Assembly: GCA_044892525.1 (NCBI GenBank)
Contig: CM097885.1
Location: 241,738,001 to 241,802,000 of the forward strand
Reading direction: 5' to 3'
DNA length: 64,000 bases
Source of the DNA: Schmidtea polychroa
Lineage: Eukaryota
The first letter of the stretch is position 1. Each line of letters begins with the position of its first letter. This document shows positions 23,735 to 61,499 of the stretch, piece by piece. The translations under genes and the position numbers were made by a program. The notes under the pieces are model-generated. The model saw only the letters and a program-made list of their open reading frames with translations. It was not told the origin of the DNA and did no database searches.

Positions 23735-26281
23735 CAGTGTTTCCCAAACTTTTGGTACTGCGTACCACCTTGATCGTTTTCATTATATAATTTGCTTTAA
23801 AATTTTATATAATGATTAAATTTTTTTATAATATCTTTTTTAAAATATACGACCTTTAAATTAATAGCATTAATGAAAAATTAGATACTTTTATAACTGA
23901 AATATTGTAAAATAAAAAATACTATACTTAATTTATTGTAATTAATGAGAAGGATGAAATTGCTTATGCTCAGATAATAATTCATCATAATTTGGTTCTC
24001 TGTTGGTTAATTTTAATCTTAGATGAGATTCAACATCTAAAAGCCTATTTCTTTTTTCGATTTAATATCTACAAATGTAGAAAAAGCAACTTCACATAAG
24101 TATGATGTTGGAAAAGGAAAGATGCATTTCAGGGCCTTTTCTGATAAAGAAGGATATGTTGATTGCAGGTGTAACCAGAATGATGGCAAAGAGCATTTCA
24201 TATGCTTATTTTTCAAGAAACCATCTGAAAATATTTCTAATAAGCTTTCTTCTTCTGCATATGATAATTCTTCTGGCATCAATGTTATATTAATATCAAA
24301 TGGATATCTTATCCATTCTATATTTTTCTTTAAATCAGGGAAATATTTTTCGAGACCAACTTGCAAATTCTTCAAATGCTGAGCTATACAGCTCAGAATA
24401 TCACCATCAATTGTATTACCCGAATTAATTATAAAATAATGAAGAGATGAAAATGAATCCACTTCTTTATTAAGAATTCGTCTTTGCCAAAACTTTAATT
24501 TTTCTATAGTAGCTTTTACTTTATCGTGAACCTGAAATGTTGAAACTTCTTTGCCTTGCAATGCTAGGTTGAGATAATTTAAAACAGAAAATATATATGC
24601 TAAGTATGCCAATTTACAAAGCCATTTCCAATCATGCAAGCAATTTTTGAGAGTAAATTTGTCATCAAGAAAAGCTAGAAGAAGTTTTCGCCTCTAAGCT
24701 CAAATAATCGATTTACTACTTTTCCTCTCGAAATCCAACGAACATCAGTATGAAAAAGAAGTTGAGTATGGTTACTTCCCATTTCTTCGTATATTTCAGT
24801 AAAAAGCCGTGAAGTTAAAGGTCGGCCTTTAATATAATTTATAATTTGAATACTTTCATCTAAAACTTTCTGCAAATCATTTGGCATTTTCCGTGTTGCT
24901 AATGCTTCTCTATGTATGCAGCAATGTGTAAATATAGAATTTGGTGCTACATTCTGAATTCTTGTAACGAGACCTTTATGAATACCAATTATGCATTTTG
25001 CTCCATTTTATTCCAATCAATTTTATGTTCTAATATAAATTTATTTATAAGATCAAAAATATCTTCTCCTGTTGTGTGGCCTGATGAAGGTTGGCAAATT
25101 GAAAGCTCATCGTGGATTTCCACATATTTTTCAAATCTTATAAAAGCCATAAGATTCGCAAAATTTGCAATATCAGTTGACTCATCAAATTGTAATGCAA
25201 AATAACGACTCTGATAAATATCCAATAATAGCATATTTTTTACATTATTTGACATATCAGTGATTTGTTGATGGACAATATTATTAGAAAGTGTTATTCT
25301 TTGAAAAAGTTGCTTTGCATCATCACCGTTCAATTTTTCAGCCATTGGGTTAGCTGCAGGTTTAATCAGAGTTTCACCAACCGTATCGGCTACACCACAT
25401 TTTGCGATTAAAAGTGAAACCCGATGAGACTTCTACGATTTTTTCATTATCACAACCTCTAAATCCCCGTATTACTTTTTGAGACCGATGTAAATTTTTA
25501 CATAAATTTTCAAAAAAATCAATTGGTTTATCCTTGTATTGATTAGGATTTTTTTCAAAGTGCCTTTTTAAATTTGAAGGCTGTATGCTTTCATTAACTA
25601 GGCTTTGTTCGCAAATAACACATAATGGTGCAGGCTTTTTTTTGATCACCTGCCCATGTAAATCCAAATTTAAGATATTCTTTGTCATATTTACGATTTT
25701 TTTAGTGGATGTTTTAAAATTCGTAGTTGATTCTCTCTGGTTTGATTTGATTTTAAAATCATTATTTTCTCGTTCTTCATTACTTTGATCGTTATTTTCT
25801 GTTAAAGTTCCCGATTTGAGCCAACGATCCATAATGTTAAAATTGGGATATAAAAAAATATTCGGCGTGACTATCAAAATCAATAAGACTTAACAATCTA
25901 AAAAAAAATTTTTCTGGTTAATATCTAAAATTAAAGTTGAAAAGGAATTATTATGAAACAGGTAGTTTAAATTTAAATAAAGATTAAATTTATAAATTAA
26001 TTCTAAAAATAAATTTAAAACGAAGCGATTTACATTTTAATTACATTTATATAAAAGATTTACTTTATGCTTTGATTTTTAAACTTAGTTTATTTTTAAA
26101 AATATATTATTGATTCGAAAATATAAACAATAAATAAAAATCAAGATTATATTTATATTTTTCTGTATTAATAAAATTTTAATAAGACATTTTAATCTAA
26201 TTAATTTTTTTTATTTATCTTTTAAAATTTTAGAGAATAGAATATTGAAAAGACCTGCGTACCCCGGTTTGGGAAACACTG
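23735..26281 (-). mobile_element. Full-length hAT (Buster/Charlie, ZBED5/FAM200-like) transposon, 2547 bp, inactivated
   Basis: Perfect 15-bp TIR cagtgtttcccaaac and perfect 8-bp TSD ATGTATTT. Transposase broken into ORFs 25374-25883, 24989-25345, 24675-24887 and 24037-24639, with a BED-like CVIC..LKRH motif, FALQFDESTD, HTDVRWISRG and FPFPTSYLCEVAFS. Confidence 0.95.
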
Positions 26282-27919: not shown

Positions 27920-29690
27920 TGTTATGACAATTTTAAATTCAATTAAAAAAATAAGTTCCAAAAGGAACAAAACACACATTGTAAAGGATAAAGCTAAGTG
28001 ACCAATAATATGCACACACACATATATAATACACACATATAAACACAAATATTAAAGGCATGTACACACACGATAAAATCAACAGCATATAAACAGACAC
28101 GCAGACGCGAGTATCAATTTGAGCTCTCATCTGCCGAAACAATCCCAATTTAACTGCATTTTGAATTTATGAAATGTTATATATCTATAAAATTATAAAA
28201 TAAGAAATAGTTCAAAATATATATTCCAATAAATAAGTATTATTGAAACAATTTAAAATTATGTTAATTTTAAATTCTTTATAATAAAAACTTTAAATTA
28301 TAATATATGAATTAAATATAAATTTAATCCATATAACATTCCACTCGCCGACAATCGAAACGGTCTCGTGGGTTTGGATTTCTTGTCTCTATCTTTGGAT
28401 ATATCTTTCTCTTTTATGTTTTAACGCTCGATTTTATTGACCAAATATTGGTATTCTACATCTCGAATTTCTTACCTATGTCCTTGATTACTTTAATTTG
28501 ATTGAAGTTTCTTCTTATTGTTTTCCTTAATTTATCACTATATAGTATAAATGTCCATTTGTTTATTATTTCCTGAATAATAAATGGGCCTACGAATTTC
28601 CTTTCAAAACCTTTTCTGTCTTCGTTTCTAACCATCACTAGGTCTCCAACCCGTGCATCCTTATTCCATTGATTTAAAAATTATATCTTTCTGCAGTTTT
28701 CTTCAAACTTTCTTCAGTAATACGTCTAACTTTCTCTTGAATTGTCTGTATATCTGTCTGTAGTTGTTCTACATAGTCATCATAATTTGTGACTTTCACT
28801 TCTAGTACTCGTGTCGGTCCGATTTGGAGTCTTGCTTTCTTTCCGAATACAATTTCGTATGGGGAATGCGTTATGGTTTTTTGTTTAGTGGTTCTTATTC
28901 CAAATTCTATGGTTGGTAGAATCGTGTTACAATCCCTCGTCTTCTTTATTTCCAACATCGCGCCTATCATACTTTTAGCCATTCAAAACAATCTTTCCAC
29001 CAGACCATCACTTTGAAGATAATATGGTGAAGTAAAGGTTTTTTGTATACCCAAGATTTTACACTATTCGAGAAAAAGTTGTTTCCACAATCCGAGTGTA
29101 TTCTTTCTGGGACACCGAATTTCGATATGCAGTTTCTCCATAGTTCTTGTGCAACCTTCGGTACTTCTGTCGTTGCCATTGATATTAAACTTATATACTT
29201 CGAGAAATAATTGATAATTCCAAGTATATATTTGTAAATCCCCATTGTTGCTTTAAAGGATCCTGTTATGTCGATTCCAATAATCTGGAAAGGTCTTTCA
29301 CCCACAATGTTTTGTAAAGGTGCTTTAACTCACCGTTTAAGATCTTATTATGCAAACGTTCCTTACCGTAACTTTCCGTATCTCTTTATCCATGGCTGGC
29401 CAATAAAATTCATTTTTAATGGCTCCAATTGTCTTTTCAATACATGTATGCCCTAAACAGGAATGAAACTGCCTAATGATGAAATCTCTTTCCGTTCTTG
29501 GTACCACCAATACATATTTATCATCCGGCATATATATAGTAAATCACCTCGCAATCTCCAATGTGTTTTAAGAGCCCATAATTTTTTCAGTTCTTTACTG
29601 CCATTCTTTAAATTACTTGGATTTTCTTCAGTTAAAATATCACCTTTCTCCATCAAATTAATTATAAACCGAATATCTGCTTCCTATTAA
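27920..29690 (-). mobile_element. Gypsy retrotransposon 3' half: integrase relic plus 419-bp 3' LTR (27920-28338)
   Basis: H2C2-type HSCLGHTCIEKT..FYWP; core PFQIIGIDITG...FSKY...FGVPERIHSD; SPYEIVFG; KFVGPF. PPT ggcgagtggaa precedes an LTR bounded by TGTTAT...ATAACA. Confidence 0.9.
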
Positions 29691-34446: not shown

Positions 34447-37400
34447 CTATGAGTAATTTTTTTCACTCGTCTCACCTTCAATTATTTGTTCAACTTGTAT
34501 TAATTTACCACTCTGGACCATACCAATACTCCTATTTATAATATCCCAAGTTTCAGTCTCTGCTAGTTCTTTACGCATTTGTTCTTCTACTTTGAGAACT
34601 TCAAAACTTTCTTTGTCATCTATCTCTACTAATCGTCGTCTAATTTCTTCGGTTCTTCTATAAGTTTCTTCAAGTCTTCTGTTTACTTCAACTCTTTCAG
34701 GAGCGACTATTTCATTGAATCTTTTATTGGCCTTTCTTCTTAAAATTACTTCTTCTTCGGATTCTATTTCGGTCATCGCTAACTCTATTGTATAACCAAC
34801 AAGTCTTTCGAGAATCGGAATAACTTCAATATAGAAATAATAAACCTAAAATAAAAAGTATTTTGTTACATTTGTTATAAATCCTTATTTTAAATATTTT
34901 ATTAAGATTTTCAGAGATGCACTTTATAAATTCATGCAAATGTAACTCCAGATCCGACAACACAAATATATACAAATATGTTTACATTGTATATTTGTTT
35001 GCCTAGACATGAGACACAATATGATAATTGTGAATGGTTTTCAATAATAACTTATAAATCGTTAGACCATCTAATAGTATTTATTATTATAAATTAATCA
35101 AGAGTAATAATTTTTTAAAATTTTTATAAAATTAAAATTTTTAAATTACTTTTAGTTTCTTATTTAAATAGTTTTGAATGTTTACTATTAGAATTCTTTA
35201 ACAGTCCGATTACGTTGTTTTATTTTAAAAAGAAAAAAAAATTATTTTTTGCCTTATAGTATTAAATATTTGGACTAAATAAATACTTAATATTTTATTA
35301 AATTAAATAAAATAATAATAATAATAATAATGATCAACTAATTAATTTTATTCGCTGTAAATTAAATTAAAATGCTAAATCAACACTGTAGTGCCTTTGA
35401 CTTTCAACTTAAAAAATACATCAATTTAATAATTAAATTTATAATACATTATTGAATTAGTTAAATTAAAATTATTGTTAAAATATTCAAAAAATATTCC
35501 TTTAATTCATATATGCTTCTTTCGAACACTGTCACTGTTTATTCTCATTAAAAATCTATTTAAAAAATGTCAAACATTCGTGAAGCTAAAACTATTGCTT
35601 TCCAAGCTGAGATCTCTCGATTAATGAGTTCGACCATCAACACCTTCTATTCAAACAAAGAAATCTCCCTTAGAGGATTGATTTCCAATGCCAGTGATGT
35701 CCTTGATAAAGTTCGTTACAAGAACTTGACAGACCTATCAGTCTTAGATGGCCAAAAGGATCTAATGATTTAAGTTATTCCAGATAAAGATTCCAATACT
35801 TTGATTTTCTCTTTCTCATAACTTTCAATATCAATTCTTTTTTTTTCCTATTTTTCCTAAAACCCAATATTTCCTCAAAATATTTCCTATTGGTTGCCAT
35901 CTGTAATGTTTTAATTTAGTGAATTTTGATTTGTACAACAATATAACTACCACATAAAACTACAGGTAATCTTTAATTTAACTTGCAGCAAAGTTTTCAT
36001 ATTTTTTGTATCATTTAACGGCATTAACCATAACTCCATAATTCATAAATCCATTCAAAATAATATTAAAACTTGCTTTTAAGACATTTTGCATTTTTTA
36101 AATATTAAATCTGATGTAAATCCTTTTTGGCAATTATTGTTTTCATTTTTATTCACAACTTGACATTTCCATATATATTTAGATTGCTTTCTTTACTGTT
36201 AAATTCATTGCTTTAAAACAATAATTGCATATTTGAATAGTTTTGATAATTTTATTTTCCATGAACCAATATTTTCAACATCACCTAAACCTTTGCTATT
36301 TTTAATTGAACTGTTTAAACTTGTTTATAAAATTATTTTGGTAACTTTCAAGTTTTTTGAAACTTTTATTTTGAATTTTCTATATTATTTTTTGTTCAAA
36401 TTTTTATTATTAAAAAATGCTGATAAAGTATATTGATAAAGATTATTTTGCAATCATAAAATGTCGCTTAATAAAACACACAGAAAAGGTTTGTCAATTA
36501 ATATTTCTTTTATTTCTTTTTTTATTTCTTACTGATTCATAATCAAGCTTAATAAATACAATGTCAATTGAAAAGAAATCAGTTGTGANNNNNNNNNNNN
36601 NNNNNNNNNNNNNNNNNNNNNNNNNNNNNNNNNNNNNNNNNNNNNNNNNNNNNNNNNNNNNNNNNNNNNNNNNNNNNNNNNNNNNNNNNNNNNNNNNNNN
36701 NNNNNNNNNNNNNNNNNNNNNNNNNNNNNNNNNNNNNNNNNNNNNNNNNNNNNNNNNNNNNNNNNNNNNNNNNNNNNNNNNNNNNNNNNNNNNNNNNNNN
36801 NNNNNNNNNNNNNNNNNNNNNNNNNNNNNNNNNNNNNNNNNNNNNNNNNNNNNNNNNNNNNNNNNNNNNNNNNNNNNNNNNNNNNNNNNNNNNNNNNNNN
36901 NNNNNNNNNNNNNNNNNNNNNNNNNNNNNNNNNNNNNNNNNNNNNNNNNNNNNNNNNNNNNNNNNNNNNNNNNNNNNNNNNNNNNNNNNNNTTATTAATT
37001 TCGTCATTAGTTTAACAAATCACAATGTTTTGATAAGGATATGTAACAGGAAATTAGAATTCCTATTTTTGCTTCGATAAAAATCAATTAGTCCAAAACT
37101 CTCGTGGAATATTCGTCTTTATAAAATATTAAATAAATGGCCCCTTACTAAAATCTTCCTTCCTGATGAAACAGCAAATATAATATATTACCTAACAATT
37201 AATTTTTCCTTGAAAATTTATTAAATTCGCGTGAATAAAATTGTGATATTAGAAATGATTGTATATTTTATTTTATGAAAATAAAATGTATTTATTTCCA
37301 AAAAGCAATAATATATTAATCTTATATTTTGTTTTCCTTACTTACAACAAATCCATAATTTTAATTTAATTTAATTTATTGATATTTTGTCATTCGGAAA

Positions 37401-40400
37401 AATATCACATTTTTACATTTTTAATTATCCTTAAAATTTTTATTATTATATTTTCATTTAAATACAAAAAATCTATTTATTTATGTCAAAAATAATTAGA
37501 AGATTTGCTGATTATTTTTAACAATATTTTAGAAAAAAATTGAAAATTCAATTCTTGAATATAAAAATAAAAAAAAACTTTAAATTATTTAACATTTTAA
37601 TAGATACTAAATTTATGTATACTACCTTTTAAAATATATTTCAATAGCTTGGATGTCATCAAGCATTTACAACATCAATAAAAACGATTATACTAATAGG
37701 TTTATTAGTAATTACATAATTATATGTGCTGAATCCAATATAATTAATTAATCCTTATAAAATTAATTAAACATCCAAAATACACATAAATAATGCATTT
37801 TTGTAGTTGTTTTCGGGGTTAAATGAATATTTATTGAAGGCTCACAAGTAATACGTTCACAATAGTTTTTTAAACCTTAGAATAACACTTTAAATTTGAA
37901 AATTGAAAATATCAACTTCAATGTATTATTATACTCAGAGTGATGTTATTGTTTTATGGATTATTTTATTTCTNNNNNNNNNNNNNNNNNNNNNNNNNNN
38001 NNNNNNNNNNNNNNNNNNNNNNNNNNNNNNNNNNNNNNNNNNNNNNNNNNNNNNNNNNNNNNNNNNNNNNNNNNNNNNNNNNNNNNNNNNNNNNNNNNNN
38101 NNNNNNNNNNNNNNNNNNNNNNNNNNNNNNNNNNNNNNNNNNNNNNNNNNNNNNNNNNNNNNNNNNNNNNNNNNNNNNNNNNNNNNNNNAGATTCGGAAA
38201 TTAAAAAATACCGATTAAAAAAATTAATGAAATGTTTGTAAAAAAAGGAATTTTTATCAGTTATTATTTTATTATTTTCTTATTAAAAATTCATACCGGT
38301 AATCCAGAGACATGATTTAAAAAAGACTATACCGGGTTCTTACAAACTAATAAAATACTATAAAACATACAACAAATATTTACTCATAATAAATTAATAG
38401 AGAAGCATTAAGGAATACTCATTAATATTAATATATTTTTCAACCATTTCACATACTATTCGATGCAAGTAAGATTTTGAATATCTGTTACATTGAAACA
38501 ATTTATTCCTTTTATAAATACTTATACTTCCTTTACAATGGCCGCATACCTCGGAAAGACTGCCCGTCATATGTATACATCACTTCAAGGTCATGCTCGA
38601 TTAATTAGAAAAATCAATATTATTAAGCATAATAATAGATGCAAGTATTATCTAAGTATTATTTAAATAAGAAATATATAATAAAATTATAATATAATTA
38701 AAATATAATATAATAAATATAATAAAAATATATTTAATAATAAAAAGTGTAATAACATCTAACGACAATCATTTGTCAAATCTTCTTCAATCTTTAATAA
38801 CTCCAATTTCCAAACCGTTTTTCGGTAAGTATTATTTAAGAAATTGGAAATCCATCTTCAATAATGTCACAAATAAATGTGTTCACAAAATACGTAAATG
38901 TAGATTTCAAACTTTTCAATTCTGTGTTTGAAATTTTCTTGTAATTCTTTCGAGTTTTCATTATATTCATCTAACTTTATTTTTATATTAATTACATTTT
39001 ATTTTACTCATGGAAAATGATTAAACATTTTGTTTTAAGATTGTAGACAAACTGTCAACAAATACAAGAATTTTTTTTCATTTTTGTAGAGTTAGCCTTG
39101 TATTCGACCGGGATCTACTTGTTCAGAAAGGCACGGGGTATTTTAGATACTCCTATTACTAGAAAAAAAAACCTTTCGCTCCCACTCATATATTTTCCCC
39201 AACTAAATGAATGATTTTTTGCGTACTTTTCTTTCCTCCTTTACACTGATCTCCTCTGAAAGCCATGGTCTTGTTCGGAAGTAGTTACCAGAAGAGTCCT
39301 GTCTCATACAGGTTGAAGACGTCGTCTGCAGAGAACTGTGTGAGTAATGGCCGGAGAATTTGCTGTTGCCACTCAAGAAGATATTGTAAATCTACTGCGC
39401 CATCTTTGCCTTGCGTTGCCTTGAATGTGATGCTGTGGTGCTTTTTAAAAATGTCTAACCAACCATCGCTCGCAATGAAGTCTGGAATATACATCAGCTC
39501 GACCAGTTTCGTCGCCTTTTTGATCAAATCACCGCTGACAAGTAAATTCTGTTCTCTTGCTTGCTTCAGCCATATGAACACTTCCTCATCAAGCTTCGGG
39601 TCGTGTGCTTGTGTCAACTTCATGCGCTTCGATGGAACACCAGATTAACTTCGATGCCCCATTTCCTGTTTATCTCCCTGGCCAACTTAGTTTGATTCAG
39701 CTACCTCTTCGCAGTATCGTTGATTTCTTTTTTTCCTTTGGAGTAAAGTTAGTTCGTTTGTGTTTCTGAGCTGACATTATGGGTTAAATTGAAAGATAAT
39801 TACGTCACTATTATGCGAGTGTTTATGTATACTTTTATATTCTCTAATTAGCTTCGGTTGTAGACTTGGAGCTGTACATCTTGTGATTGGCTAATTTTAG
39901 TTGTTATCTGCGAGAAGCGTCACGAGCTTGACCTTGACACAGTCATACTATGCGCATACATATTAAGTGTTTAGTGCAGTTAGACTTAATTTATCGCTTC
40001 ACTTTTGAGACGTGAGTGATAATAGAGCATTGTGCAAAAACATAAACTTTTAAAAACTCTTGCCTTTTTACAGTTACACAATATAGGCATAATAGCGAGA
40101 GTAGAGAGTGGTATAGTAAATTTATTTTATATTTAATTTTGTAGGAACCTAGTAAAGGTGGTATAATAGCGAGAGTGTCATAGTAACAAGATTTGACCGA
40201 ATTTAAATTAAAATTACATATGCATTATTATTGATGAAATCAACAAAAAATTGGTTGTTTAAATATTATCATTATCTGCGACCTTTTTTATTTCTAAACT
40301 AACAAACTTTGTACTCAAAACAATTTGTGGAACATGGAACCACTTCATCTCTATATCATACGTATAATTGCATCAACATCACACTTTCGGTTCTTCATAT

Positions 40401-41409
40401 ATTTCTGTGCTATCAGTGTTCAAAGTTCATCTAATGGAAATATCAGATCGCATTTCAAATTTAAAAAAGAAAATAAAATGTATTCAAAACTCTGGAATGA
40501 CAACAATTTGTGGAGCATGGAACCGCTTTACTTCTATATCGAATGTATATTACAAATGATACATTTTGTAAAGCTACTGCTGATATGTCTACTTGTCGTT
40601 GGATCATAGGATGTCCCGTCAATGGATATGACAAAGGCAAATCAACAATTACACTTAGATAATGGAGACTACTCAATCGCAATTGAATATTGAAACAACC
40701 CGAAAATAAGAGAATTGTATTCAATTAAATGTATAGCGAAGCAAAACCTCCTAAACTCCGAATACATTTGGTACTACGATGTGGAATTCGATCATCCAAT
40801 GGAAATGGGAACTTGAATCTACTCGATTTACTTATGTAGAAATTGATAAAACCAATAATGATGAATATATTTTACTTATTCGTCTTAGGTTCATACAATT
40901 AGCACTGTTATTTGATAGGTTATAGTGAATTATTAAATAGATAGTGAAATGAACCAAATTATGAAATTAATTCCAAAAAAGTCCTTAAAATCCATATAAT
41001 GATTCCAGAATATACTTATCAGTTAAAATTTGCATAATTTATTAATATTTCATTGTATTCTCTAACTCAGTGGTTCTCAATTAATATAAAAGCGCGGAAC
41101 ACCATTCACATAATTTTTTTACGCGGAACACTGACAAAAACATACTTGCCCACAATGAGTGACCAATCACAAATTACTATAAATCTGTCGTAAACATAAA
41201 CAATGCCTTCTTATAAGCAACAATAGCAAGCAATAAAAACACTTTTATATTTATATGTTTATATTCAGTGTTTCGCGTAAATAAAATCATGTGAATGGTG
41301 TTCCGCGCTTTTTTATTAATTGAGAACCACTGAGTTAGAGAATATAATGAAATATTGACGGCTTTCTTATTGAATCATCTTATAAAAACATTAATTGAGG
41401 TTTATGATG

Positions 41410-41461
<52 letters not shown>

Positions 41462-42292
41462 TGCAAATTTAAAGATAAAATGTCATTTTTTTCGCGGAAC
41501 ACTGGAAGCGTAATCGCGGAACACGGGTTGAGAACCACTGCTCTAATTACAGCTCCGAGAATTACTGAAATATCCACTCGCCATTTCATAACGAGTAAAC
41601 CAATTTCCATAAGAAAAGGGGGAAATTACTACATGTTTTCTTTCTCCTGTTTATTGAACTATTTGTGGTGGGTATTTTGATTAAGAAACAAGATTGTAGA
41701 CGTCATAAAATGTCAGTAGTATATTGAAGTTGGTTTAAATGCATAAAAATATTGAAAACAGTATTAAACCAGCTCATTATATAAAATTTGCCAAATTATC
41801 TGAAAAGGTGTCACAATGTAGATGATATATTATTATCCTATTAAGAACTAACATATTTCACGGGATTTATATCACAAGTTTCCGTTTGAGTTGCCACATC
41901 TTTCATTTTAACTCGGTTGATGAACTTCGGAAAATACGGAGACAGCTGAGTCTCTTCAACATCCGTAGGAAGAAAATGGCTCATTATCTTTCTATCCGTA
42001 ATCTCCTCATATTCTGGCTCGTAAACCTCAGGAATCACCTGACGAAATCTCGTTTTCTTGCACGGGAAATAAAAGGTATCTTCAGTCACTTCATTGAAAT
42101 GGGAATTGGTATTTCTCTGTTTGGATATAACTAGAATTATTAATATTAATAAAATATAATTAACAATTATTGCAAAATTATTATAATTTTTGAAATCAAA
42201 AGAAAATTACCTTTTGATTTCATACTGATTTCGGATGTTGGAGGGCTATGAAATTGATATTTTTTATTAACCGATGTCACATATTTAAACAT
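34447..42292 (-). CDS. RSPH3: Divergent radial spoke protein 3-like gene, 249 aa (exons 42292-42211, 42130-41862, 34845-34447)
   Basis: GT-AG introns of 80 bp (phase 1) and ~7.0 kb (phase 0) join into a stop-free 750-nt frame. EEITDR...[14 protein letters not shown]|[32 protein letters not shown]...[15 protein letters not shown] aligns by eye with RSPH3 EEIADR...KDVATQILEGELFDFDLEVKPVLEVLVGKTIEQSLLEVMEEEE...ERAEVQRLEEQERR. Confidence 0.82.
35567..35803 (+). pseudogene. HSP90: HSP90 N-terminal fragment (copy 1, ~79 codons)
   Basis: [51 protein letters not shown]...[12 protein letters not shown]. One stop; truncated after ~79 codons; antisense within the RSPH3-like intron. Confidence 0.93.
35804..36588 (-). 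mobile_element. Merlin (IS1016/IS1595-like) transposon 5' half
   Basis: Minus strand [11 protein letters not shown]...YIWKC...C zinc ribbon, ITD(W), and [12 protein letters not shown] (GG.G..VEIDES-like). The dispersed terminal repeat lies at 36500-36588 pointing inward. Confidence 0.6.
38440..38650 (+). mobile_element. Penelope-like GIY-YIG endonuclease relic
   Basis: ~38546-38600 translates [17 protein letters not shown], matching YIGKTxRxLxxRxxEH. Confidence 0.6.
39225..40199 (-). mobile_element. Tigger/pogo (CENP-B-like) transposon 5' part
   Basis: ATG at 39777 (MSAQKHKR); [28 protein letters not shown]...[15 protein letters not shown]...[12 protein letters not shown]. Terminal-like cggtcaaatc at 40199. 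Confidence 0.85.
41068..41540. mobile_element. hAT (Buster-type) MITE containing an inverted copy of its own left end plus flank
   Basis: 13-bp TIR cagtggttctcaa at 41068 and 41540; TSD ctctaact / ctctaatt. An extra inverted TIR ends at 41332 and is followed by the reverse complement of the left flank. A (TA)n tract lies at ~41413-41457. Confidence 0.85.
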
Positions 42293-42665
42293 ATTATCGC
42301 ATTATATGTTTTCCTGTTGCGTTTAAACAATTTAGAAATATAATTAATATATAGTTAATTTTAATAATTTAATAATTTATAATACTAATAATGATAGAAT
42401 TAACATAATAATTTCTAATAATAAAATATTGCAAATTTTGCTTTTATTTCAAAAAAATTTCCTTCATTAATTTGGAATGATTATCAAATAGGAAAATAAT
42501 TAAGAATAATATTTGTAAAAAATCAATAAATCATATTTGAAATTTAATTTAACTTTTTGACCATTTTTTGTAAGCGCAAAATTTATTTATTAATTTAAAT
42601 AACTTATCTTTAATGTAAAAAATTTTCAAAGTTTTTAAATATTAAATATGGGTACCATATAAGTA

Positions 42666-43104
42666 CATGGGCGTCCGCAAGGGGGGGGGCAAGTGGGGGC
42701 ACTTGCCCCACCTTAATTTCCCAAACCATTCTATTTTTCGAATAATTTAAACACATTTTAATAGATGCGCTCAAATAATGTTGGAAAAACCCAAGACAAA
42801 AAAAATTAATAAAAAATTTTATTTAAAGAGGCTTCCTGTTTTTTTATGTTATTAATAATATCAGGAAATCAATGATTTAAAATCATCTTATTTGTATAAA
42901 TACTTTCAATATTAAATGACGTTCAGATTTTAAAAAGAGTGTTCTATTTTGTAAATAAACGGAAAAAAAGTCTTATTTTGCATAATTCCCCAAATATTTA
43001 TTATACACATGAATTTTTTCAACTCTCTTCCCGCCTAGAAAAATTGTCTACTTGGTAAAAAAAATTTTTTGGCCCCCTTGGAAAAATTCCTGCGGACGCC
43101 CATG
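42666..43104. mobile_element. hAT-type MITE, 439 bp
   Basis: Perfect 14-bp TIR catgggcgtccgca and perfect 8-bp TSD TATAAGTA. Confidence 0.92.
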
Positions 43105-45078
43105 TATAAGTACTATATAAATATATAGTTTTAAATACATTTGCTTATCAAATTAGACATTAACTAATGAAAGCANNNNNNNNNNNNNNNNNNNNNNNNN
43201 NNNNNNNNNNNNNNNNNNNNNNNNNNNNNNNNNNNNNNNNNNNNNNNNNNNNNNNNNNNNNNNNNNNNNNNNNNNNNNNNNNNNNNNNNNNNNNNNNNNN
43301 NNNNNNNNNNNNNNNNNNNNNNNNNNNNNNNNNNNNNNNNNNNNNNNNNNNNNNNNCAAATTCCATAATTTCTCAGCAAAGATGTCAATTATTTTAGATT
43401 TTATTTGGAAAATTGCAAAAATTAACAACAATTCAGAATATATAATAAATTTCAATGTTCTAATTTATATGATACACCAGTATGATACATTGAAATACTG
43501 CAATTTCCATTATTTTAGCATTATAAATGTTCCTACTGATAATATTTTCAACGGGAATTTTATTATTATTATTTTAGGATATTTTGTGAAATGTATATCT
43601 TTATAAGTTGTGTTGAAATTCATTAAATTCTTAGATTTGTGTTCACTAGATTGAACTTGTTCGTTGAGATTCGAATCCAGCAAACCCTTTCACCGACCGC
43701 TTCTCACTCTCTTTCTCATTGAATTCTGATTGATATTATTTCCGTTCAACGATTCAATGCTCGAATCACTAAAAGAACCTTTCATATCACACTTCATTAA
43801 TTTTATCTTCTCTGTATTCATTACAGTTTCTGTTATATGCATTGGTATCAAAATTGGTTCACTTTTTTTTTATATCAAAAATCTTTCTCAAATCTTTCTC
43901 ATATCAAAAATCTCAGATGATAAAAGAAAAGCAGCTTTATAAATTTCAGAAACAATTTATTTCATCCACAAAACATAAAGACAACTCCAAATTTCGAAAT
44001 CAGCGGGAAAATCCAATTGATACACTCAAATCACCGGAAAAAACACCAATACAATCACATCAGAAAATCGAAACCTAAAACTCCACCAATTATCAAAGGA
44101 AAAGACGCACACAAAAAAATCTAGTTAAACTGGATCGGCCGAAACAAAAAATGTTGTAGATATTAACTAATTTTATTCAATAAAATTAACTTAAATATTC
44201 TATTTAATAACATGAACTATTTATTTAAAATTATAAATAGGATTTGTTGCAAATTTAAATAATGTTTTTAAAATATTTTTGTACTTTTACATTTCATTTT
44301 TTTATCGCTGAATAATGAATATAAATAGAATATAGTAGAATATAATCCAGAGTAATTATTCTGTATAATTCCATAATGAAGATTTTCAATATTATTTAAT
44401 TATTTTATAATACAAAATATTATATGATAAAATGACCATCAATGTAATAATGGTTTGTACACAAGTTACGTAATCGTGTAAGAGTACAAGCCTAAAGGAC
44501 TTCCGCACCTGGATTTGAAATTGTAACAGGAAATTTTATTAAAAAGCTGTTACAATTATTATTAATATAACAATTATTATTAACAATTATTATTAACAAT
44601 TATTATTAATATTATTATTAAATATTAATATATTTGTAGAACATATTGAATTGACTAATTGTTAATAGTGACATGAATCAATCAATCAATCACAATTGAG
44701 TATACATGTGAGTTGACTTTTATGACATTATTTTACTTATTTGACAATTCTTATTTCAATTGATTGAAATCTTTAACACTAGAATTACGGGTAAAAATAG
44801 CCGTAAAAATAGGTATACCTAATTCGATATGCGAATTGAGGGAGTCGGTAGAGGGAGCAATTAATATTTACCTATATTTCATGACGTATCTAAAAGCAAC
44901 ATGTATTCANNNNNNNNNNNNNNNNNNNNNNNNNNNNNNNNNNNNNNNNNNNNNNNNNNNNNNNNNNNNNNNNNNNNNNNNNNNNNNNNNNNNNNNNNNN
45001 NNNNNNNNNNNNNNNNNNNNNNNNNNNNNNNNNNNNNNNNNNNNNNNNNNNNNNNNNNNNNNNNNNNNNNNNNNNNNN

Positions 45079-47118
45079 AGCGGTGGATGCAAAGCATCGG
45101 GGCGCCTCTCGGAAAGGGCGCTAAAAAATTTAGAATTTTAGTTTCTTTTTAATATTTAACAAAAAAACCATTAACAAATTTTTTTTTAATAAGAATTTTT
45201 TTTTTTTAAATAAAATTTCCTTGAAAAACTACTGGCCTACTAGTTTTCGAAGTGTTTAAGAATTGTTTAATTATTTCGCAAAACAAAATAAATTATACAT
45301 GCATAAATTTATTTTGAAACGGCCTGCTATATTCGGTTTAGTTATTTCGAATAAAAAAATTAATGCTAAAAAAATTATTTTAAAAGTCTACCAGTTCTAT
45401 TCAGTTTTCAATCAGTTCAGTTGTTATTTGGTAAACTTTTTTCGCTAATAAAAAAAAATTTAATATTAAAATTTTAATAGTAAAATAAAAAAGTGTTAAG
45501 TACAGTTTAATAGTAAAAAAGTGTTTTGTTTCAGTACATTAGTTATTTTGCGGAATTGAATCATTGTACGGTGGTAGGTATTATTTAATTATTTTTATCT
45601 TTACTTCTAAAATTTATATTTTTTTAATTAAAAAAATTTTTATTAGCTTACCTATATCATAAAATATGAATTCAAAGACAAAATTATCCGGGTGTGAAAA
45701 TCGAAAACGAAAGGCGAAGAGAGAGTTGGAGGAACAAAAAAATCAGGGAAGCCTTAACCAATATTTAAAAAAAGCAAATTTGACAATACCTACAATAACG
45801 TTAACGGATGATCAGATTATTCCAGAGGATAGCACAAATGGTGAAGTTAGAAATAATGCCACTAATGAGACACAATCTTTAAATTTACAAACAGAAATAA
45901 CATCTTCATCTAACAAAGAGCTTCAAACCATACATTTAACTGAAACTATAAGTAATAGTGCTGATTTTCATTCAATTGATCCCGCAACTTGGCCTAAATT
46001 TATTAATGATAAAATTAGAAAAATTATTATACAGCAAGGACCAATGCAAATAAGGAAAGAAGTTTATCCCCGTGATGATGATGGACGAAGTTTTACTAAT
46101 TATTATTACAATCGTAAATTACCTAATAATGAAATTATACCAAGATCATGGTTAGTTTATTCAAGTTCAGTAAACCGTGTTTTCTGTTTTTGTTGTAAAT
46201 TGTTTATAAATCAAATAGAAGGAAACCAGAATTTGATTATAAATGGTTTTAGTTGCTGGAGAAATTTGTCAAAAACACTTGCAGCTCATGAAGTTAGTAC
46301 ATTACATGTTAATTGTTTTTTAAAGTGGACTCAATTAAAAAAGAAAATGAACAACTTAACTACAATAGATGCTGAACTCGTAAAAGTATACGCAGTTGAA
46401 AAGAAACATTGGTACGCTGTTTTGGAGAGAATTGTTGAAATCATAAAATATCTTGCCAGACAATGCCTGTCTCTGCGTGGCTCGTCAGATACTATCTATG
46501 AAAAAAATAACGGTAACTTTTTAAAATTTGTAGAACTTTTTTCTAAATTTGACATAGTAATAGCAAATCATTTAGCAAAGATACAAAAAAAGGAGACACA
46601 AACAGTTCATTATTTAGGCAAAACTATACAAAATGAAATAATATCGTTGATCTCTTCGAAAATTTTGCAAAATATTATTCAAATGATAATTAATGCCAAA
46701 TATTTTTCTCTAATATTAGATTGCACTCCTGATATTAGTCATAACGAACAAATGACATTTATAGCCAGATTTGTCAATAAAGATGAAAATAATGAAGTTG
46801 CAATAAGCGAACATTTTTTGGGATTTTTAAAAGTATCTGACTCCACAGGAAAGGGTTTAGCAACTTATCTTATTGACAACATTAAAGATTTAGGTTTGAA
46901 TATTAATGATCTACGTGGACAAGGTTACGATAATGGCGCAAATATGCATGGGAAAAATAATGGGGTCCAAAAACGTATTTTAAATTTGAATTCTCGTGCA
47001 TTTTTCGTCCCATGTGCTGCACATACACTTAATTTAGTAGTGAATGATGCAGCCAAAATTAACACAGAATCATTTAGTTTCTTTTCCACTATTCAAACAA
47101 TTTATAATTTCTTTTCAA
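45079..47118 (+). mobile_element. hAT (Tip100/ZMYM1-like) transposon, 3'-truncated; 489-aa open ORF at 45666-47135
   Basis: TTF-type zinc finger (WLVYS..NRVFCFCCKLF...HEVSTLHVNC), LSLRG, LILDCTPDISHNEQM, GQGYDNGANM, and CxxH (PCAAHTLNLV). Lacks the C-terminal region. GC-rich subterminal sequence sits next to the gap. Confidence 0.92.
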
Positions 47119-47143
47119 ATTGGCTCAGTCCGTAAATCTAGTG
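47119..47143. mobile_element. piggyBac terminal stub
   Basis: ...gtaaatctagtg|TTAA, the same CACTAGATTTAC terminus as the element at 57088-59154. Another such end starts at 55521. Confidence 0.7.
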
Positions 47144-48264
47144 TTAATAATTTATATTTAATTGATTATTAATGACTAGAATTTTATTATCCTTTTATTA
47201 TCATTTTAATAGTTTAATAGTTTAACCTTTTATGATATGGGAGTGTTTTGAATAATTCAAATTTTTACTTCTTATTTTTTTCATTTTCTTTATTTTTATT
47301 GGGAAATTATACATTTACTGATGACCTTAAGTACAGTTAGTCACGACTTTTTTCATAATTTTTCGTCAATGAGTGCCACTTCCTTAACAATTCACCGAAA
47401 TCCAAATGTTTTTGGCTGTAAAAATATCGAATCTCATTCAACCAAAAAATTTTGACACCATAAATTACCCGTGGAAAATCTTGAGGCTGCATTTCGCCTA
47501 AAAATATACTGTGATCACAAAATCTTATTCAAAAAAACATACCACTTTTACATGTAGAAAATGTCAAATTTCATTCGATCACAAAATCCTGTAACCAAAA
47601 TTTCTTATTCAAAATAATTGCACATGTTGTTTATTGTAATTGTAAAATCACAATATGACTGAGACCAAATTACCCAATTCAAATACTATATCTCCACAAA
47701 ATCATGAGACCAGCAATTCACTATATAAAATACTGAGCCCATTTTCTTATTGAAACTTCTATACAAGCAAAAATCTCTGGGCTAAAAGACTTACACAATA
47801 AATTCCTTAGAGTTTTTATCGATAATTTATTTTGAGGCTTTTGTAGTAAAAATTTTATTTTTAAGATTTTAAATGAGAAAAAGTTCAGCATTTTAATATT
47901 GAATACAAATGTATAATAAAAATTGAAAATTAAAAATATAAATTTTATAAGAACTTTTCATTAAAACAAAATATAAAATGAAAATCACTTCATTTAAATA
48001 AATCGTTTTGAAATTTTACATAACTTATTAATTCCGTAAAAATCTCATCTACAAATTGATAAAATCGATTTAAAAGATAAAAATTTATTAAGATTTTTTT
48101 TTATTAATAATTTATTATTATTAATTTTTATTCCAATTTTCTCATCAAAATTTTTCTCACCTATTTTTTTTGTGAACTTTTTTATTGAATCGATTTTAAA
48201 CAAATACATTTTTTCATGAAATTCATCTACTTATTGTTTAGTACTAAGTGTAGAGAAATGAAAC

Positions 48265-49165
48265 TGTTGGGTTATTGAGTTTGAGATAAAATTAGAATTC
48301 TTACTCTGACTCCAAGCCTGCCTTTGACTGTCCCACAAATAACAATTAACACTGGAAACTTTATTGAATATCACATATTTTCACAATGATACAATTGGCT
48401 CAAAAGTTAACTATCGATTAAACCGTGCTTATTACAACACTATGGTGAGTAACCTTGATTTGACAATTCTCTCACAACTGAGGAGTGTAATAATTGGTAA
48501 TTTTAACTGGTTGTTTTCTGATTTGACTTGGATTTACTCGCCGAACCTTACTCTATTATCACTAAATAAACTCTTGCTGCTTCTAATTATTTCTGTTTTC
48601 TCTTAAATTTCTCCGCTTCAATTTTATTCAACTTCTCCAAATAAATTATTATATCTCCAAATTATTCCTCAAATTTCCTCTAACTGGTCCTTCCCAAATT
48701 GTTTTATCGATTGTTCCTTCTAAGTTTTCTTCTAAATTGCTCTCTCTCTATCGTTCTGCCTGCTCCTGCTGTGCTACCTCCTTTTATACCTCGTAAATTT
48801 GTAGCACTTGAGTTTATCTTCCATTTCCCATTTTTTCCTTCCACCTAATTTCCCAACTTTTCCCTGCTACTGAGTTATCTTTGACAGCTGTCGAGATATT
48901 TTCTAATTTTCCCTTTTGTGGCTCCGGCCTGTTTTTGTTTTGTTGACCGTTATCTCTGACAAGCTGTTGAGATATTGTTCTTTTTTCTATTTTTTCCGAT
49001 TTTGAAATTCTTTTTCCTTTTGTACTAATTAATTAGTACTGACCTTTGTTTTGTTTTCATGTCTGATTTCTTTTGTTTCATTTCTCTTTCTCATTTCTTT
49101 TTACTTCCGTTTTCTTTTCTCAGTTCCCATAGAATGCCCCGCTTGTCATGACGATCTTCCCCCAA
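48265..49165 (-). mobile_element. ~890-bp LTR with upstream polypurine tract
   Basis: Minus strand PPT ttgggggaaga (49155-49165), LTR start T(C)GTCATGAC, TATA ggtataaaag near 48785, AATAAA near 48360, and a tentative end ...CCAACA at 48265. Confidence 0.6.
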
Positions 49166-49239
49166 GTAATTTTATTTATTTATTTATAAATTTGTTAACA
49201 AAACTTCAACAAAACTAATTTGAATTAAGATTTTATTGT

Positions 49240-49615
49240 AAACGACATTAAAAGCGATCATGGAAATATTTGTTCCAGCAGTCAATGTTCCAACGAAAGT
49301 ATGTGCACTTGATCTGGTGATTGTACTGAGATTTTTGATGAACTTGCATTTGGACATGTAGACTCCAGTATCGTACGATGTGAAAGTATTGGAATCTTTA
49401 TCTGGAATAACTTTGTTCAATAACTCCTTTTGACTGAAGACGGATGGGTCAGTCCAGTTCTCGTAACAAACTTTATCAGGGGAATTGCTAGAATCTCGAA
49501 GTAGTATTCCAAGGAAAATTTCTTTGGTTGAATAAAAGTTGTTGATGATCAAACTCATCAACAGAGAAAACACAGCTAGGAAAACAAAGTCTTAAGCTTC
49601 TTGAATGTTTGGCAT
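49240..49615 (-). pseudogene. HSP90: HSP90 N-terminal fragment (copy 2, ~125 codons)
   Basis: MPNIQEA*DFVFLAVFSLLMSLIINNFYSTKEIFL...[32 protein letters not shown]...AGTNISMIA. Homology stops at the GQFGVGFY motif. Confidence 0.92.
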
Positions 49616-50599
49616 ATTTTCTTTATTGGTTTTGATGAGAGTTAACGCTTGGGATGTCGAATGATACAGGAATTGTTTTATATCGTTAGTTTTTTTTTGA
49701 AAGAAAAGATTATTTAAACAATAATTTTAATTTGATTTAGTTATAATTAGTTTAATAATATATTTTAAGTTTAATTATTAAATTGATATTTTTATTAATG
49801 TGTAAATCAGAAGCTCCACACTAAGTACCTAAGAAAAATGTCTAAAACTGATTTAAAGAAAAGTTAATTGAAAATAATTATCAATATTAATTCAAGAAGA
49901 ATTAATAATATTCAGGAGAATTAAAACATTTATTCAATTAACTCAAATCATTATTTGACAAATTTTGCTGGTAAATTAATTATTTAATTACGTAATGTTT
50001 CACATTCTCAGTTTCCTAACTAAAAGAATTAAAATAATCAAATTTGATTTTATTTGGTAGAATTAATTTGCAAATAAAGTTTTATTTTAATTATCGGTGT
50101 TAATTTTTGATGAGAAAATTGGAATAGTAATTAAATGTTTGTCTTTTCTAATAAATTTTTATTTATTTATTAATTTTTTTATTTTGTAAATCGATATCAT
50201 CAATTTCTAAATGAGATTGTTACGAATTGAATCAGCTATAAATCTTTGAAATCATCAAGTAGACTAATGGGAAATTTATAAATGAAAAATAATTTAGGGT
50301 GAGGTAGAAACGTTTTTGAAAATTAAGTAAGAAAAATGGAGCACCGACGATTGAGCGCAGAATCGTAGCGCGAAGTACAACTGCGACGTGTGCGCGAAAA
50401 ATTATTTGTTTTAATATTCCAAGTTATTTTTAAGAAAAATCTCCAATAATATTGAAATTTGATATATATATATATATATTTATAGTTTTAATGTTTAAAA
50501 ATAAAAGTTTTAATTTAGTATTAATGGAGTTTTTTTAACTATAAATTAATTATTTGCGCATATTCGTCGTTACAGGAAGAAAAATATGGTACCTTCCTC

Positions 50600-51130
50600 T
50601 TGGAAGGAAGTATTATCGAGGCTTTCGGCGAAATTTTCATTTTGGTGTTACGAGCTTACATATACCACTATGATTGACTAATGAAACTTTTTCAACAGTT
50701 TGTAACAAAATGTACTGGAACACTAATGTGATTATCTGAGTTGCTAGTGATTGTCCAAATATTTGAAAAATGTTGAAAAAGTAAATGACAGTGGTGACAA
50801 TATTGCTTCAATTATTATCACCATAAACCAGTCTCACAGACTTTTGAAATAAATATCGGGCTTAGTTTTCTGCAATTAACTTAACAAAATTTGTTCTAGA
50901 AACCAAATTGAAAGTCAAATGTTGTGCAAAACATGCAAAGCAAAAAGAGGTAAAATTCAATATTTCATACTCACAATTACAAACTTTCATTTATCTAAAT
51001 TATTTTAGTATTATAAGAACTTCTTTCGATTTTCACCTCTGATTTTGCAAATGAAGCCTATATCGAAAATTCGTGAATATCAAAAAAACATCGATATCTT
51101 TATTGATTCATAGTTAATTTTTAATAAATA
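50600..51130 (+). mobile_element. Merlin transposon 3' part
   Basis: VASDC (I.SD.W-like), ITINQS (TVNHS-like) and RNQIES...KAKRG (TNxIESxW..K...G-like), followed by the shared terminal repeat at ~51060-51130 in inverted orientation. Confidence 0.55.
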
Positions 51131-57087: not shown

Positions 57088-59154
57088 CACTAGATATACC
57101 AGCTGTTTACGTATACCTATTTGTACCAAACCAGTCAAAATGACAGGTGCATTAGAAATAAGGCTTATTGTGGTTTCCAGTCTATATTTACTCATAAAAA
57201 AGATAAAAATAAAGTTGAACAATATTAAGTATAATAGATAAATGGATTTATAGACATTGACAAATAACAAAACATTTAATTGTTTTACAGTTTAAAGCTC
57301 ACAATTTCTACATATGTAGATTTTGCTGCGTGTACACTTTCCACATAGACTTTTTTTGCATTTATTGCAAATATTTGTAGTTTTCTTGTTATTGCAATAT
57401 CCTATTTGACACCATTTTCGTACAGGAACAGTGGAATTTGTGGTTGGTGTATTGATTTCGGCTGGTTTTTGCCTTGAAGTTTGATATTTTGCAGCAAGTT
57501 CTTCTGCTAATCGAAACAGAAAGTCTTTTCGTGAGACATTTTCTCCTGTAGTGTTTTTGTACAATATCCAGCTATTTATTGCGGCTAAATCTAAAATATT
57601 GAAAAATACTTGTAGTGGCCACCTTCTGGATCCTGATTTCACCGTATATTTTCGTGCCATTTGATCAGTAATATCGACGCCAAATTTAGTATTATTATAA
57701 AACGATACGGTTTCCGGTAATTTCTTTGCAGCTTTATCAATTTTGATGTGTTTATGTTTTGTACTTAGTATAAGTACTTTTACCACATATTTCGTCTCTA
57801 CATCGGACGCTAACCAAAGTTTTATGCCAAATTTTTGAGGTTTGTTTGGCATATATTGAGTAAACCTGCATCTGGCCTTTGATGGAAATAGTTGCTCATC
57901 CACGGTAATATAAGCTCCTGGTTTGAAGCAATTTTTACTGTTTTCAATAAATTTATCCCAAACTGCTGAGACTAAAGCAAACTTGTCTGTCTGCAAACGA
58001 TGACTCCTCTGATTTTTTTGTTGAAACGAATGTATCGCAGAATCTCAGTAAAATCACGTCTACTCATAGTGTTAGAGAAAAATGATGGTCCCCACTTGTT
58101 ATTCCACAAATATTGAAGCCTCAAATTATTTCCTTCGTACGCTCCACGTGCATATAATATTGCTAGAAAATCCTTCAATTTTTCTTCCGTAATTGTCCAG
58201 TTTTTCACCAAAACTCGAGAGGCTTCTAACTCAGTACAAATTCGAATATGTTCCAAAATGTGGTTGTCAATCAATAATAGGAACGCACTACTTAGATTCC
58301 CGTTCATAATGTTTCTTTTAGCATGTGCTGTTGGCCCGTGTACATCTTTGAAAACACTATGAAGTGGTAATCTACCAGCAATACCTCCTTCTTCAATTCT
58401 CGTCCAAATAGTTCCATCGGAAGCAATTTCAGTTTGCTGATTTGGTATGATACTTCCACATTCATCTTCAGAACTGGAAGGGAATCGCATACATCGTCGT
58501 GTGCGTTTGTTTAGAATATTTTCGCAATCACTGTCACTTGACTGATCTATATTGTCTTTATCAGAAATTTCCTCATCGTCACTTTCGATAATAGCACTAC
58601 TATTATCACCATTACTATCACACAATTCACTCTCTACATCTGAACATTCCTGAGGTATGTTAGTTGCATTTTCTAAATATGTAGAAAGTTTTGCTTTTTT
58701 TGACATTTTTTGGGCCTCACAATTACTATAAAAACTTTGTCTATAAGAAAAATGTGCGAGTTGAACAAAGCTAGAAACAAGACTGAACATGTCTAGAGCA
58801 TTTACAAAACAAATGCTTATTAAAATGACGTCATCAACACAATGACGATAGTGAAAGAAAACAAAAGACGATAACGAAAGATACAAAAGACGCTTCTGTG
58901 CTGTATGTACTGCAACGGTCTCATGATTCACCCAAAATCATACATTTTTTCATAAAAACACAACCTGTCATTTTGACTGGTACTGGTATAAATGTCAATA
59001 ATGTATAAAAAATAACATTAACTTTATAAAACGTGTTCTCTAATTATAGCAACAAAAGTCATAAATTCATTTGTGAAAAAAAAGTTTTATTTTGTAGGAA
59101 TTTTGAATTGAAATTGCACGACCAGTCTAAATGACTGGTCTGGTAAATCTAGTG
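57088..59154 (-). mobile_element. piggyBac (PGBD4-like) element, 2067 bp, internally deleted and frameshifted
   Basis: TTAA at both ends; TIR cactagata/ttaccag (14/15); perfect internal inverted repeat ccagtcaaaatgacaggt. Transposase ATG at 58706, with TVDEQL, NNTKFGVD, RRWP and a C-terminal Cys-rich domain. The DN(W/F)FTS segment is missing. Confidence 0.95.
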
Positions 59155-60137: not shown

Positions 60138-60659
60138 ATTTGGCATGCCAAAATTTATCGTTCCCATCATTTTATTTCATCGATCGATAGCTTGTTTTGA
60201 AGTTTGGTGCAAGACCTTTCGAATGAGTTATAATGGTCATCACCATCATTAATATTGGCAAAGTTATTAACATTTTCCCGAGACCATTTTCAAGGTCATT
60301 TGACTATTTTATTATTATTTTTTAAAATATTATTTTTTTTTCAAGGTCATTTATTATTTCAAGGTCAAATTTTTTTCAAGGTCAAATTTATTTTTAAGGT
60401 CATATTTTAAAATTTAAATTTACAGAGTTCCCGCCAACGAACATTATTCAACGATAGCTCATTTGAAAGCCCAATCCAGGACCTTTCGATTGAGCCATAC
60501 ATCTCATTATTAACATTATTATTTCTAAAGATATTATTATTATTATAATTATTATTATTATTTTTCAAAATATTATTATTTTTCAAAATATTATTATTTT
60601 CAAGGTCATATTATTATTTTTCAAAATATTATTATTTTCAAGGTCATATTATTATTTTA

Positions 60660-61325: not shown

Positions 61326-61499
61326 TAGAAATCAATAAAAACCATAGCATATTGTAAGTATTTATATATAGTCTGAATTTTTCCGACAAAATATTCTGTT
61401 CCCCTATGTGTATTTGTCGTAAGGGTACTGGTCATATTCAATATGTCGCAAGGGTATATTAATTAAGGTATATGTATATTAGTTAAACATTCTTAGGTA

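Follow-up and report, generated by a model that had tools for sequence, protein, structure and literature searches.

In yeast Ty1, a copia-type retrotransposon, the Gag frame starts inside the 5' long terminal repeat (LTR) and extends across the primer site; its LTR is not known to hold captured host coding sequence or a ubiquitin-like unit. In the Ty3/gypsy elements described here, too, the Gag frame probably begins in the LTR, but this LTR holds captured host coding sequence. Two LTRs of this family occur in a 64,000-nucleotide stretch of Schmidtea polychroa DNA (assembly GCA_044892525.1, contig CM097885.1, positions 241,738,001 to 241,802,000), called the window below, and each carries the 5' end of an hsp90 coding sequence. 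We consider it quite probable that these are solo or truncated Ty3/gypsy LTRs in which the end of a spliced hsp90 5' untranslated region (UTR) and ~128 codons form a likely translated leader, placed before a ubiquitin-like domain and Gag and shed by a host protease at a Gly-Gly. The sequence evidence is strong for LTR identity and RNA capture, and good for the translated leader.

LTR-mediated retroposition by template switching onto a co-packaged mRNA is a known route in animals (PMC5131818), and in these retrocopies, as in maize Bs1 (PMC13317346), a partial spliced host mRNA was likewise amplified with fixed switch points. In both systems the retrocopy replaces parts of the internal open reading frames (ORFs) and the element behaves as non-autonomous (PMC5131818, PMC13317346), whereas the HSP90 piece lies inside the LTR of an element that retains gag-pol, and apparently supplies the start codon of the Gag frame. 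Cytopathogenic pestiviruses also have a ubiquitin-type unit ending in Gly-Gly within their polyprotein, with a host gene fragment ahead of it, and there ubiquitin is proven to be a captured processing signal behind which host hydrolases cleave (PMC8310069). However, these are RNA viruses with authentic ubiquitin and proven cleavage, whereas the present unit is very diverged, precedes a retrotransposon Gag, and is a putative cleavage signal. The giant planarian Gypsy elements Burro and GYPSM1 also contain host-like domains, some of them linked to ubiquitination; they exceed 30 kb, have env, and carry their cargo in an internal ORF (PMC6431247), unlike the HSP90-bearing element, which is ~5 kb, has no env, and carries its cargo in the LTR.

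A CHCC Gag motif defines CsRn1-like elements (PMC2582038). We found eight distinct instances of this motif, as CX2HX9CX3C, and the HSP90-bearing element also shares with the CsRn1 clade the order of protease, reverse transcriptase, RNase H, and integrase (PR-RT-RH-INT), the absence of env, a size of ~5.3 kb, and TGT...ACA termini. The CsRn1 clade is characterized by a tRNA-Trp primer site; its target-site duplications (TSDs) are of 4 bp, whereas those of the HSP90-bearing element are 5 bp, and neither a leader nor a ubiquitin-like domain before Gag is mentioned for CsRn1 elements in the available portion of PMC2582038. Because its TSD is 5 bp and not 4, the element is classed, on Gag motif and TSD, as CsRn1-like rather than as a member of the clade. 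Within the available literature, a body that does not include subscription journals or Repbase, no prior description was found of an HSP90-LTR family or of a leader-ubiquitin-Gag layout.

The LTRs in the window and in the genome

Both HSP90 fragments in the window were verified, with ATGs at 35567 (+) and 49615 (-). A preliminary description of this DNA had reported these two 5' fragments together with upstream motifs common to both, and fragments and motifs are indeed present; the shared upstream DNA was also correctly recognized, but its common 5' end is the LTR terminus at 35387 and 49820 and not position 35420. When the window is aligned with itself, 35387-35802 matches 49820-49383 with 71% identity (444 nt, E 9e-52). 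The plus-strand copy (copy A) is 85% identical to a full type-A LTR over LTR positions 1-409 and groups with type-A copies in a phylogenetic tree, and the minus-strand copy (copy B) covers positions 1-603 of the 614 in a full type-B LTR, to which it is 87% identical, and falls inside the B clade with support of 100/100. A stop codon at 35771-35773 interrupts the HSP90 frame of copy A. Copy B, which is 75% identical to the host gene over 365 nt, has a lone stop at 49592-49594 and otherwise a 135-codon open frame. Truncation of the two fragments at different 3' points had been proposed, and this is true of copy A, which is cut at 35804, but copy B reaches the end that is fixed in the family, at codon ~128. 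Nor did the two copies decay independently, as had been suggested, since 27 of the 59 nucleotide differences in their shared codons are diagnostic of subfamilies and not private. The window copies are solo or truncated LTRs, one from each of subfamilies A and B.

The expectation that many more copies exist was borne out by searches of the 781-Mb genome, which rules out that these two are the only ones. A DNA query returned 818 candidates, the best 40 of which were scored, and an HSP90 N-terminal peptide query returned 847, with the best 150 scored and at least 150 matches. The HSP90 C-terminus gave 11 matches, with three loci being cytosolic-type genes (87-100%). A 20-nt element-specific motif has 328 genome matches with at most one mismatch (control, 0), and recovers 29 of 61 sampled A and B copies, 0 of 49 C and D copies, and 0 of 3 host genes. 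By extrapolation there are about 690 HSP90-bearing copies, a figure in which eroded subfamilies are not counted. The best-hit loci yielded 151 distinct copies, and 110 LTRs were sampled for the junction, motif, and AATAAA tests.

The ends of the unit are fixed across copies, running from TGTAG to CTACA, and both TG...CA termini are present in 76 of the 151 distinct copies. Among 41 solo copies, defined as having neither primer site nor purine tract, a 5-bp TSD is exact in 20 and has at most one mismatch in 32 (0.3% and 2.7%, respectively, for shuffled pairs); an exact 4-bp TSD is found in none and an exact 6-bp TSD in one. Primer-binding-type sequence follows 36 of the 151 copies, a polypurine tract precedes 19, and AATAAA occurs near the LTR 3' end in 98 of the 110 sampled LTRs. 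Direct LTR pairs are present at five loci (L064, L066, L068, L069, and L071). The internal region between paired LTRs spans ~4.1-4.5 kb and has the Ty3/gypsy order PR-RT-RH-INT, which was read from Pfam matches on consecutive open stretches of L047 and L065. In L065 the integrase frame stops 67 nt before the 3' LTR, and therefore there is no room for env.

Two other interpretations of these loci were set aside. A non-HSP90 5' LTR in L047 was rejected because other full-length copies carry eroded HSP90 derivatives, and the L047 5' LTR is probably mostly lost. Independent processed pseudogenes were rejected because the copies share fixed ends, LTR termini, and monophyly, and because the C-terminus is found at only three cytosolic-type loci. 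A splice-donor-like AAG/GTAAAT sequence lies directly after the primer site in most copies (for example, L044:1752-1762). At L076 and L079, another Gypsy family is nested beside this one; its pol frames, on the opposite strand, are open over 902 and 653 aa.

Capture of a spliced hsp90 message

The HSP90 piece stems from one capture from a single host gene, L041, which encodes 707 aa in a single coding exon; the closest named full-length animal relative of the host hsp90 is Dugesia japonica HSP90 (82%). A full type-A LTR is 85% identical to L041 codons 1-128 and 70-71% identical to two paralogs, and the captured piece ends at codon ~128 throughout the family. A tree built from 30 copies and the three host genes places the copies in a single clade (support 95/91) next to L041 (100/100), with type B nested inside on a long stem (100/100).

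L041 has a 45-nt GT..AG intron immediately before its ATG. A contig from run X1 skips precisely these 45 nt and run X4 keeps them, although the contig counts for less in that X1 is RNA only by guess. In all 52 scorable cases among the 110 LTRs, 16-19 nt separate an exon anchor from the ATG, where a spliced junction predicts 17 nt and a genomic one 62. The UTR end in a full type-A copy is 25 nt long and 88% identical to host exon 1, and only about these 25 nt are securely aligned, the next ~40 nt being ambiguous. Over the last 65 nt before the ATG, 13 of 14 type-A copies match the exon at z>2 and 1 of 14 matches the intron, and none of the 14 matches the next 300 nt upstream. The LTR 5' part (the first ~110 nt) is common to all four subfamilies (~80-92%), and in 0 of 14 type-A copies does it match the 300 nt upstream of the host exon at z>2. 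Because the intron is missing and the LTR 5' part is unmatched in the host upstream DNA, capture occurred at the RNA level, from spliced hsp90 mRNA into the LTR. No LTR from before the capture was found that is similar enough to locate the switch points. Reverse transcriptase may have switched templates onto a co-packaged hsp90 mRNA, and normal LTR copying would then have placed the captured piece in both repeats; solo LTRs would be produced by LTR-LTR recombination.

The L041 message itself appears to be trans-spliced at -127 (5' exon L041:4240-4321). At an AG in position -127 relative to the ATG, the X1 contig departs from the gene and continues with 23 foreign letters, which have 38 exact genomic matches, none less than 1.7 Mb from L041; of three such matches inspected, one precedes a donor-like GGT. 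Trans-splicing has been reported in planarians (PMC10899757), and the 23-nt sequence was not found in the published text searched. In 15 of 30 type-B LTRs (for example, L120, L121, and L143), a two-unit TTCnnGAA-type motif precedes the ATG, where shuffling leads one to expect 2.6.

Reading frame into Gag and remodelling of the HSP90 piece

The predicted HSP90 frame does not stop at the LTR end: it crosses the primer site, enters a ubiquitin-like domain, and continues into Gag. The LTRs fall into four subfamilies, A, B, C, and D, which are ~591, ~623, ~415, and ~390 nt long with mean within-type identities of 86, 88, 91, and 93%. These are nested (A to B to C to D), and the HSP90 piece has been shortened only in frame: the distance between the HSP90 ATG and the end of the LTR has modal values of 422, 416, 209, and 125 nt, each equal to 2 mod 3, a phase kept by 17 of 21 C copies and 25 of 28 D copies. 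Upstream ATGs added in C and D are in frame without exception (21/21 and 28/28). In type D LTRs (for example, L181:1611-1703), an acidic N-terminal stretch, MSNEVTEVV..., has been added in frame ahead of the HSP90-derived ATG.

Across the primer site, the frame is kept in 24 of 36 copies (p 4e-5), a count that includes L102, whose internal sequence differs. Later anchors downstream of the LTR are in frame in 28/33, 18/29, 19/22, 7/14, and 8/12 copies. Each of the four types has frames that pass the primer site without a stop; in L092 (type B), 280 aa are unbroken from the HSP90 ATG across the primer site and into the ubiquitin-like domain, L181 (type D) has an unbroken 465 aa into Gag, and L177 also reaches Gag. 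Inherited indels in the ORF are in frame in five of five cases (three between subfamilies and two shared by at least three copies), compared with 20 of 101 private indels and 1 of 15 shared indels upstream of the ORF. Transcription would start in the LTR upstream of the ATG, translation would initiate at the hsp90 start codon and continue into Gag, and a deubiquitinase-type host enzyme could cut the leader from Gag after the Gly-Gly.

Ubiquitin-like domains have a beta-grasp fold of ~75 aa with a Gly-Gly end; the putative unit here is 74 aa long and ends in Arg-Gly-Gly, after which Gag begins, and the Gly-Gly is conserved. A similar unit, with no HSP90 match within ~2.3 kb upstream, was seen at L221 and L229, two of 12 more distant Gag loci. 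The L221 model (predicted local distance difference test, pLDDT, 76.5) retrieves ubiquitin, ISG15, and SUMO in Foldseek with probability 0.95-1.00 and E 0.007-0.08. In VIA, seven matches have Z of at least 5, all of them ubiquitin-like (best Z 5.6, root-mean-square deviation 3.2, 68 aligned). P0244, a public relative with 44% identity over 281 aa, has a unit that ends in RLRGG and is preceded by only ~40 aa; P0243 was discarded as an unrelated repeat protein. Because the sister lineages have the unit without HSP90 and P0244 has so little in front of it, the unit is older than the HSP90 capture. L229 also has the same TGTAGTGCC terminus; its LTR is apparently very short, and it contains a long open frame that is hydrophobic.

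Selection was estimated as net ratios of non-synonymous to synonymous change (dN/dS), that is, between-group minus within-group values. The net ratio is 0.09 from host to A (confidence interval, CI, 0.04-0.18), 0.21 (0.06-0.58) for the ubiquitin-like domain, and 0.07 for the Gag N-terminus, and within subfamilies dN/dS is 0.6-0.8, near decay. With the paralogs as outgroup, the LTR stem has 8 synonymous and 5 non-synonymous changes (p 0.004), and the same polarization puts 5 synonymous changes on the host branch and leaves 6 changes unplaced.

The captured fragment ends at ~128, inside the host HATPase domain (residues 32-183). E37, which we take to be the catalytic glutamate of HSP90, is replaced by G in 19 of 29 A copies and by I in 27 B copies. 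The piece cannot work as an ATPase. The catalytic glutamate was lost early, with codons 10-24 turning hydrophobic afterwards: among A-to-B changes, those raising hydrophobicity are 5 of 6 in codons 9-24 versus 15 of 38 elsewhere, and mean hydropathy of codons 10-24 is 1.34 in the host and 1.22, 2.78, 2.32, and 2.26 in A, B, C, and D. The hydrophobic segment is possibly a membrane anchor, which is a guess from hydropathy alone.

Coordinates of the LTR parts in the window, and of related loci, are listed in the table. Past the damaged 3' end of copy B, 48600-49180 (-) resembles the sequence that interrupts the element in L088, and this sequence is probably another repeat family. No tRNA gene was found in the window. 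The intervals 528-666, 36517-36587, 51064-51130, and 41044-41356 hold a palindromic repeat resembling a miniature inverted-repeat transposable element, with partial copies, and a separate 77-nt inverted repeat (95%). Three satellite arrays (13950-16880, 59452-60060, and 60500-61360) have units of 7/14 nt, of 31 nt rich in TGACTCA, and of ~66-72 nt. Five open frames, at 45663-47132 (+), 24040-25889 (-), 57295-58937 (-), 39288-39644 (-), and 28970-29329 (-), look transposon-like by eye, and we presume them to represent hAT-type, piggyBac-type, and pogo-type transposases and a piece of Gypsy integrase.

Table. Parts of the two HSP90-bearing LTRs in the window, and sister loci that have the ubiquitin-like unit
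Feature	Position	Strand	Remarks
Type-A LTR, Ty3/gypsy	35387..35804	+	3'-truncated (full ~591 nt); starts TGTAGTG
LTR 5' part	35387..35500	+	putatively U3-like, by position; holds motifs at 35420 and 35463
hsp90 5'-UTR exon end	35544..35566	+	fused to ATG without the 45-nt intron
HSP90 codons 1-79	35567..35804	+	84.9% to host gene over 238 nt
Type-B LTR	49200..49820	-	near-complete; ~12 nt of 3' terminus missing
Segment from hsp90 5' UTR	49616..49639	-	adjoins ATG
HSP90-derived codons 1 to ~125	49240..49615	-	subfamily-B form; hydrophobic codons 10-24
AATAAA polyadenylation-like signal	49232..49237	-	near LTR 3' end
Sister lineages, ubiquitin-like unit before Gag	L229:1857-2540, L221:2239-2808		no HSP90

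Alternative explanations and significance

Several observations weigh against a translated leader joined to Gag through a ubiquitin-like unit. The structural model of the unit from the HSP90-bearing family itself is poor (pLDDT 59.6): its best Foldseek E is 0.32, although the majority of matches are ubiquitins, and in VIA its best Z is 3.9 with no ubiquitin among the 50 matches listed. Neither this model nor that of L221 has a Foldseek match reaching E 0.001, searches by sequence for ubiquitin gave no match in Pfam or among PDB sequences, and the ESM Atlas gave only leads below 0.9 for the unit. The copies were chosen as best hits, so the sample is biased to well-preserved ones. Of the A and B copies, which are old, no more than 14 of 31 and 14 of 30, respectively, keep the phase up to the end of the LTR, the interval near the Gly-Gly is in frame in just 7 of 14 copies, and no type-A copy has an unbroken frame from the ATG to Gag. 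A Met in the linker after the primer site could be an alternative start, and the linker has a net dN/dS of 0.57 with a wide interval (0.22-2.28). Also, a lost donor paralog or allele would partly explain the low host-to-A dN/dS and weaken the test on the LTR stem.

The captured message might be a passenger that was never usefully translated, with Gag made from the Met after the primer site and the frame conserved incidentally. Such a view would accommodate the progressive deletion of the piece in the younger C and D subfamilies, the net A-to-B dN/dS of 0.74 (CI 0.44-1.28), which is compatible with neutrality, and the mere ~40 aa ahead of the ubiquitin-like domain in the sister protein. However, we think it unlikely, given the contrast between inherited indels within and upstream of the ORF (p 4e-4), the in-frame position of all new upstream ATGs, the stop-free passage through the primer site in all four types, and the synonymous excess on the LTR stem. 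Perhaps the benefit lies instead in the hsp90-like RNA, either as a source of anti-hsp90 small RNAs or as a disguise in which resemblance to an essential gene shields the element from silencing; translation would then be secondary. HSP90 has a role in piRNA loading, the ~690 copies are 75-85% identical to this essential gene, and each element transcript would carry the piece at both ends. This explanation is nevertheless very unlikely, as the piece has diverged rapidly from the host (host-to-B net dS 0.53), the youngest subfamilies have dropped most of it, and its changes respect codons and not nucleotide identity.

The preliminary description had favoured a DNA-level capture over retroposition, with an hsp90 promoter and N-terminal cassette spread by a DNA transposon or Helitron. 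An amplified cassette without poly(A) is indeed present, and the shared upstream DNA, the high copy number, a weak resemblance (mean z ~1) between the LTR 5' part and the AT-rich exon, and the two-unit motif of type-B LTRs could be cited in favour of this proposal. It is refuted as to mechanism and promoter because the junction is spliced: the intron is missing in 52 of 52 cases, and the upstream DNA consists of a part derived from the spliced hsp90 UTR and an LTR 5' part that is not hsp90. The motifs at 35420 and 35463 sit in the latter, which is unmatched in the host upstream DNA. A comparison of the flanks for terminal inverted repeats (TIRs), TSDs, or Helitron ends had been suggested; the ends are those of LTRs with 5-bp TSDs, a primer site and a purine tract are present, and paired LTRs enclose gag-pol, and capture by Pack-TIR elements or Helitrons was rejected on the missing intron, the unmatched upstream DNA, and these LTR-type ends. 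Capture of the hsp90 promoter was likewise rejected on intron loss, unmatched upstream DNA, and the lack of a three-unit heat-shock element upstream of the ATG, which is absent from 110 of 110 LTRs; the same absence speaks against the suggested spread of stress-responsive promoters. In the host gene, the sole three-unit heat-shock-like motif lies at -120, within the 5' exon and not upstream of it. We regard DNA-level capture as barely credible.

A further proposal, which builds on the translated leader, is that the LTR serves as an evolvable cargo slot before a self-removing ubiquitin tag. The first helix of HSP90, with the changes A11V, Q13L, E15V, and Q18L, might have been selected into a membrane anchor that tethers nascent Gag until a deubiquitinase frees the capsid. 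We offer this only tentatively, and it is more doubtful than not; if true, a host enzyme fragment has been repurposed stepwise in a transposon, with the intermediates kept in hundreds of dated copies.

The probable translated leader has consequences of its own. LTR capture, a translated leader, and a ubiquitin-like joint together would provide a route by which retroelements acquire and remodel host genes while keeping gag-pol, with the joint allowing the cargo to be discarded. Across the four nested subfamilies, purifying selection appears to be followed by loss of the catalytic residue, hydrophobic conversion, and in-frame trimming. Also, the ~690 HSP90-like fragments will be mistaken for hsp90 pseudogenes, and in this animal they can interfere with the mapping of hsp90 reads, the design of RNAi against the gene, and the analysis of its small RNAs.

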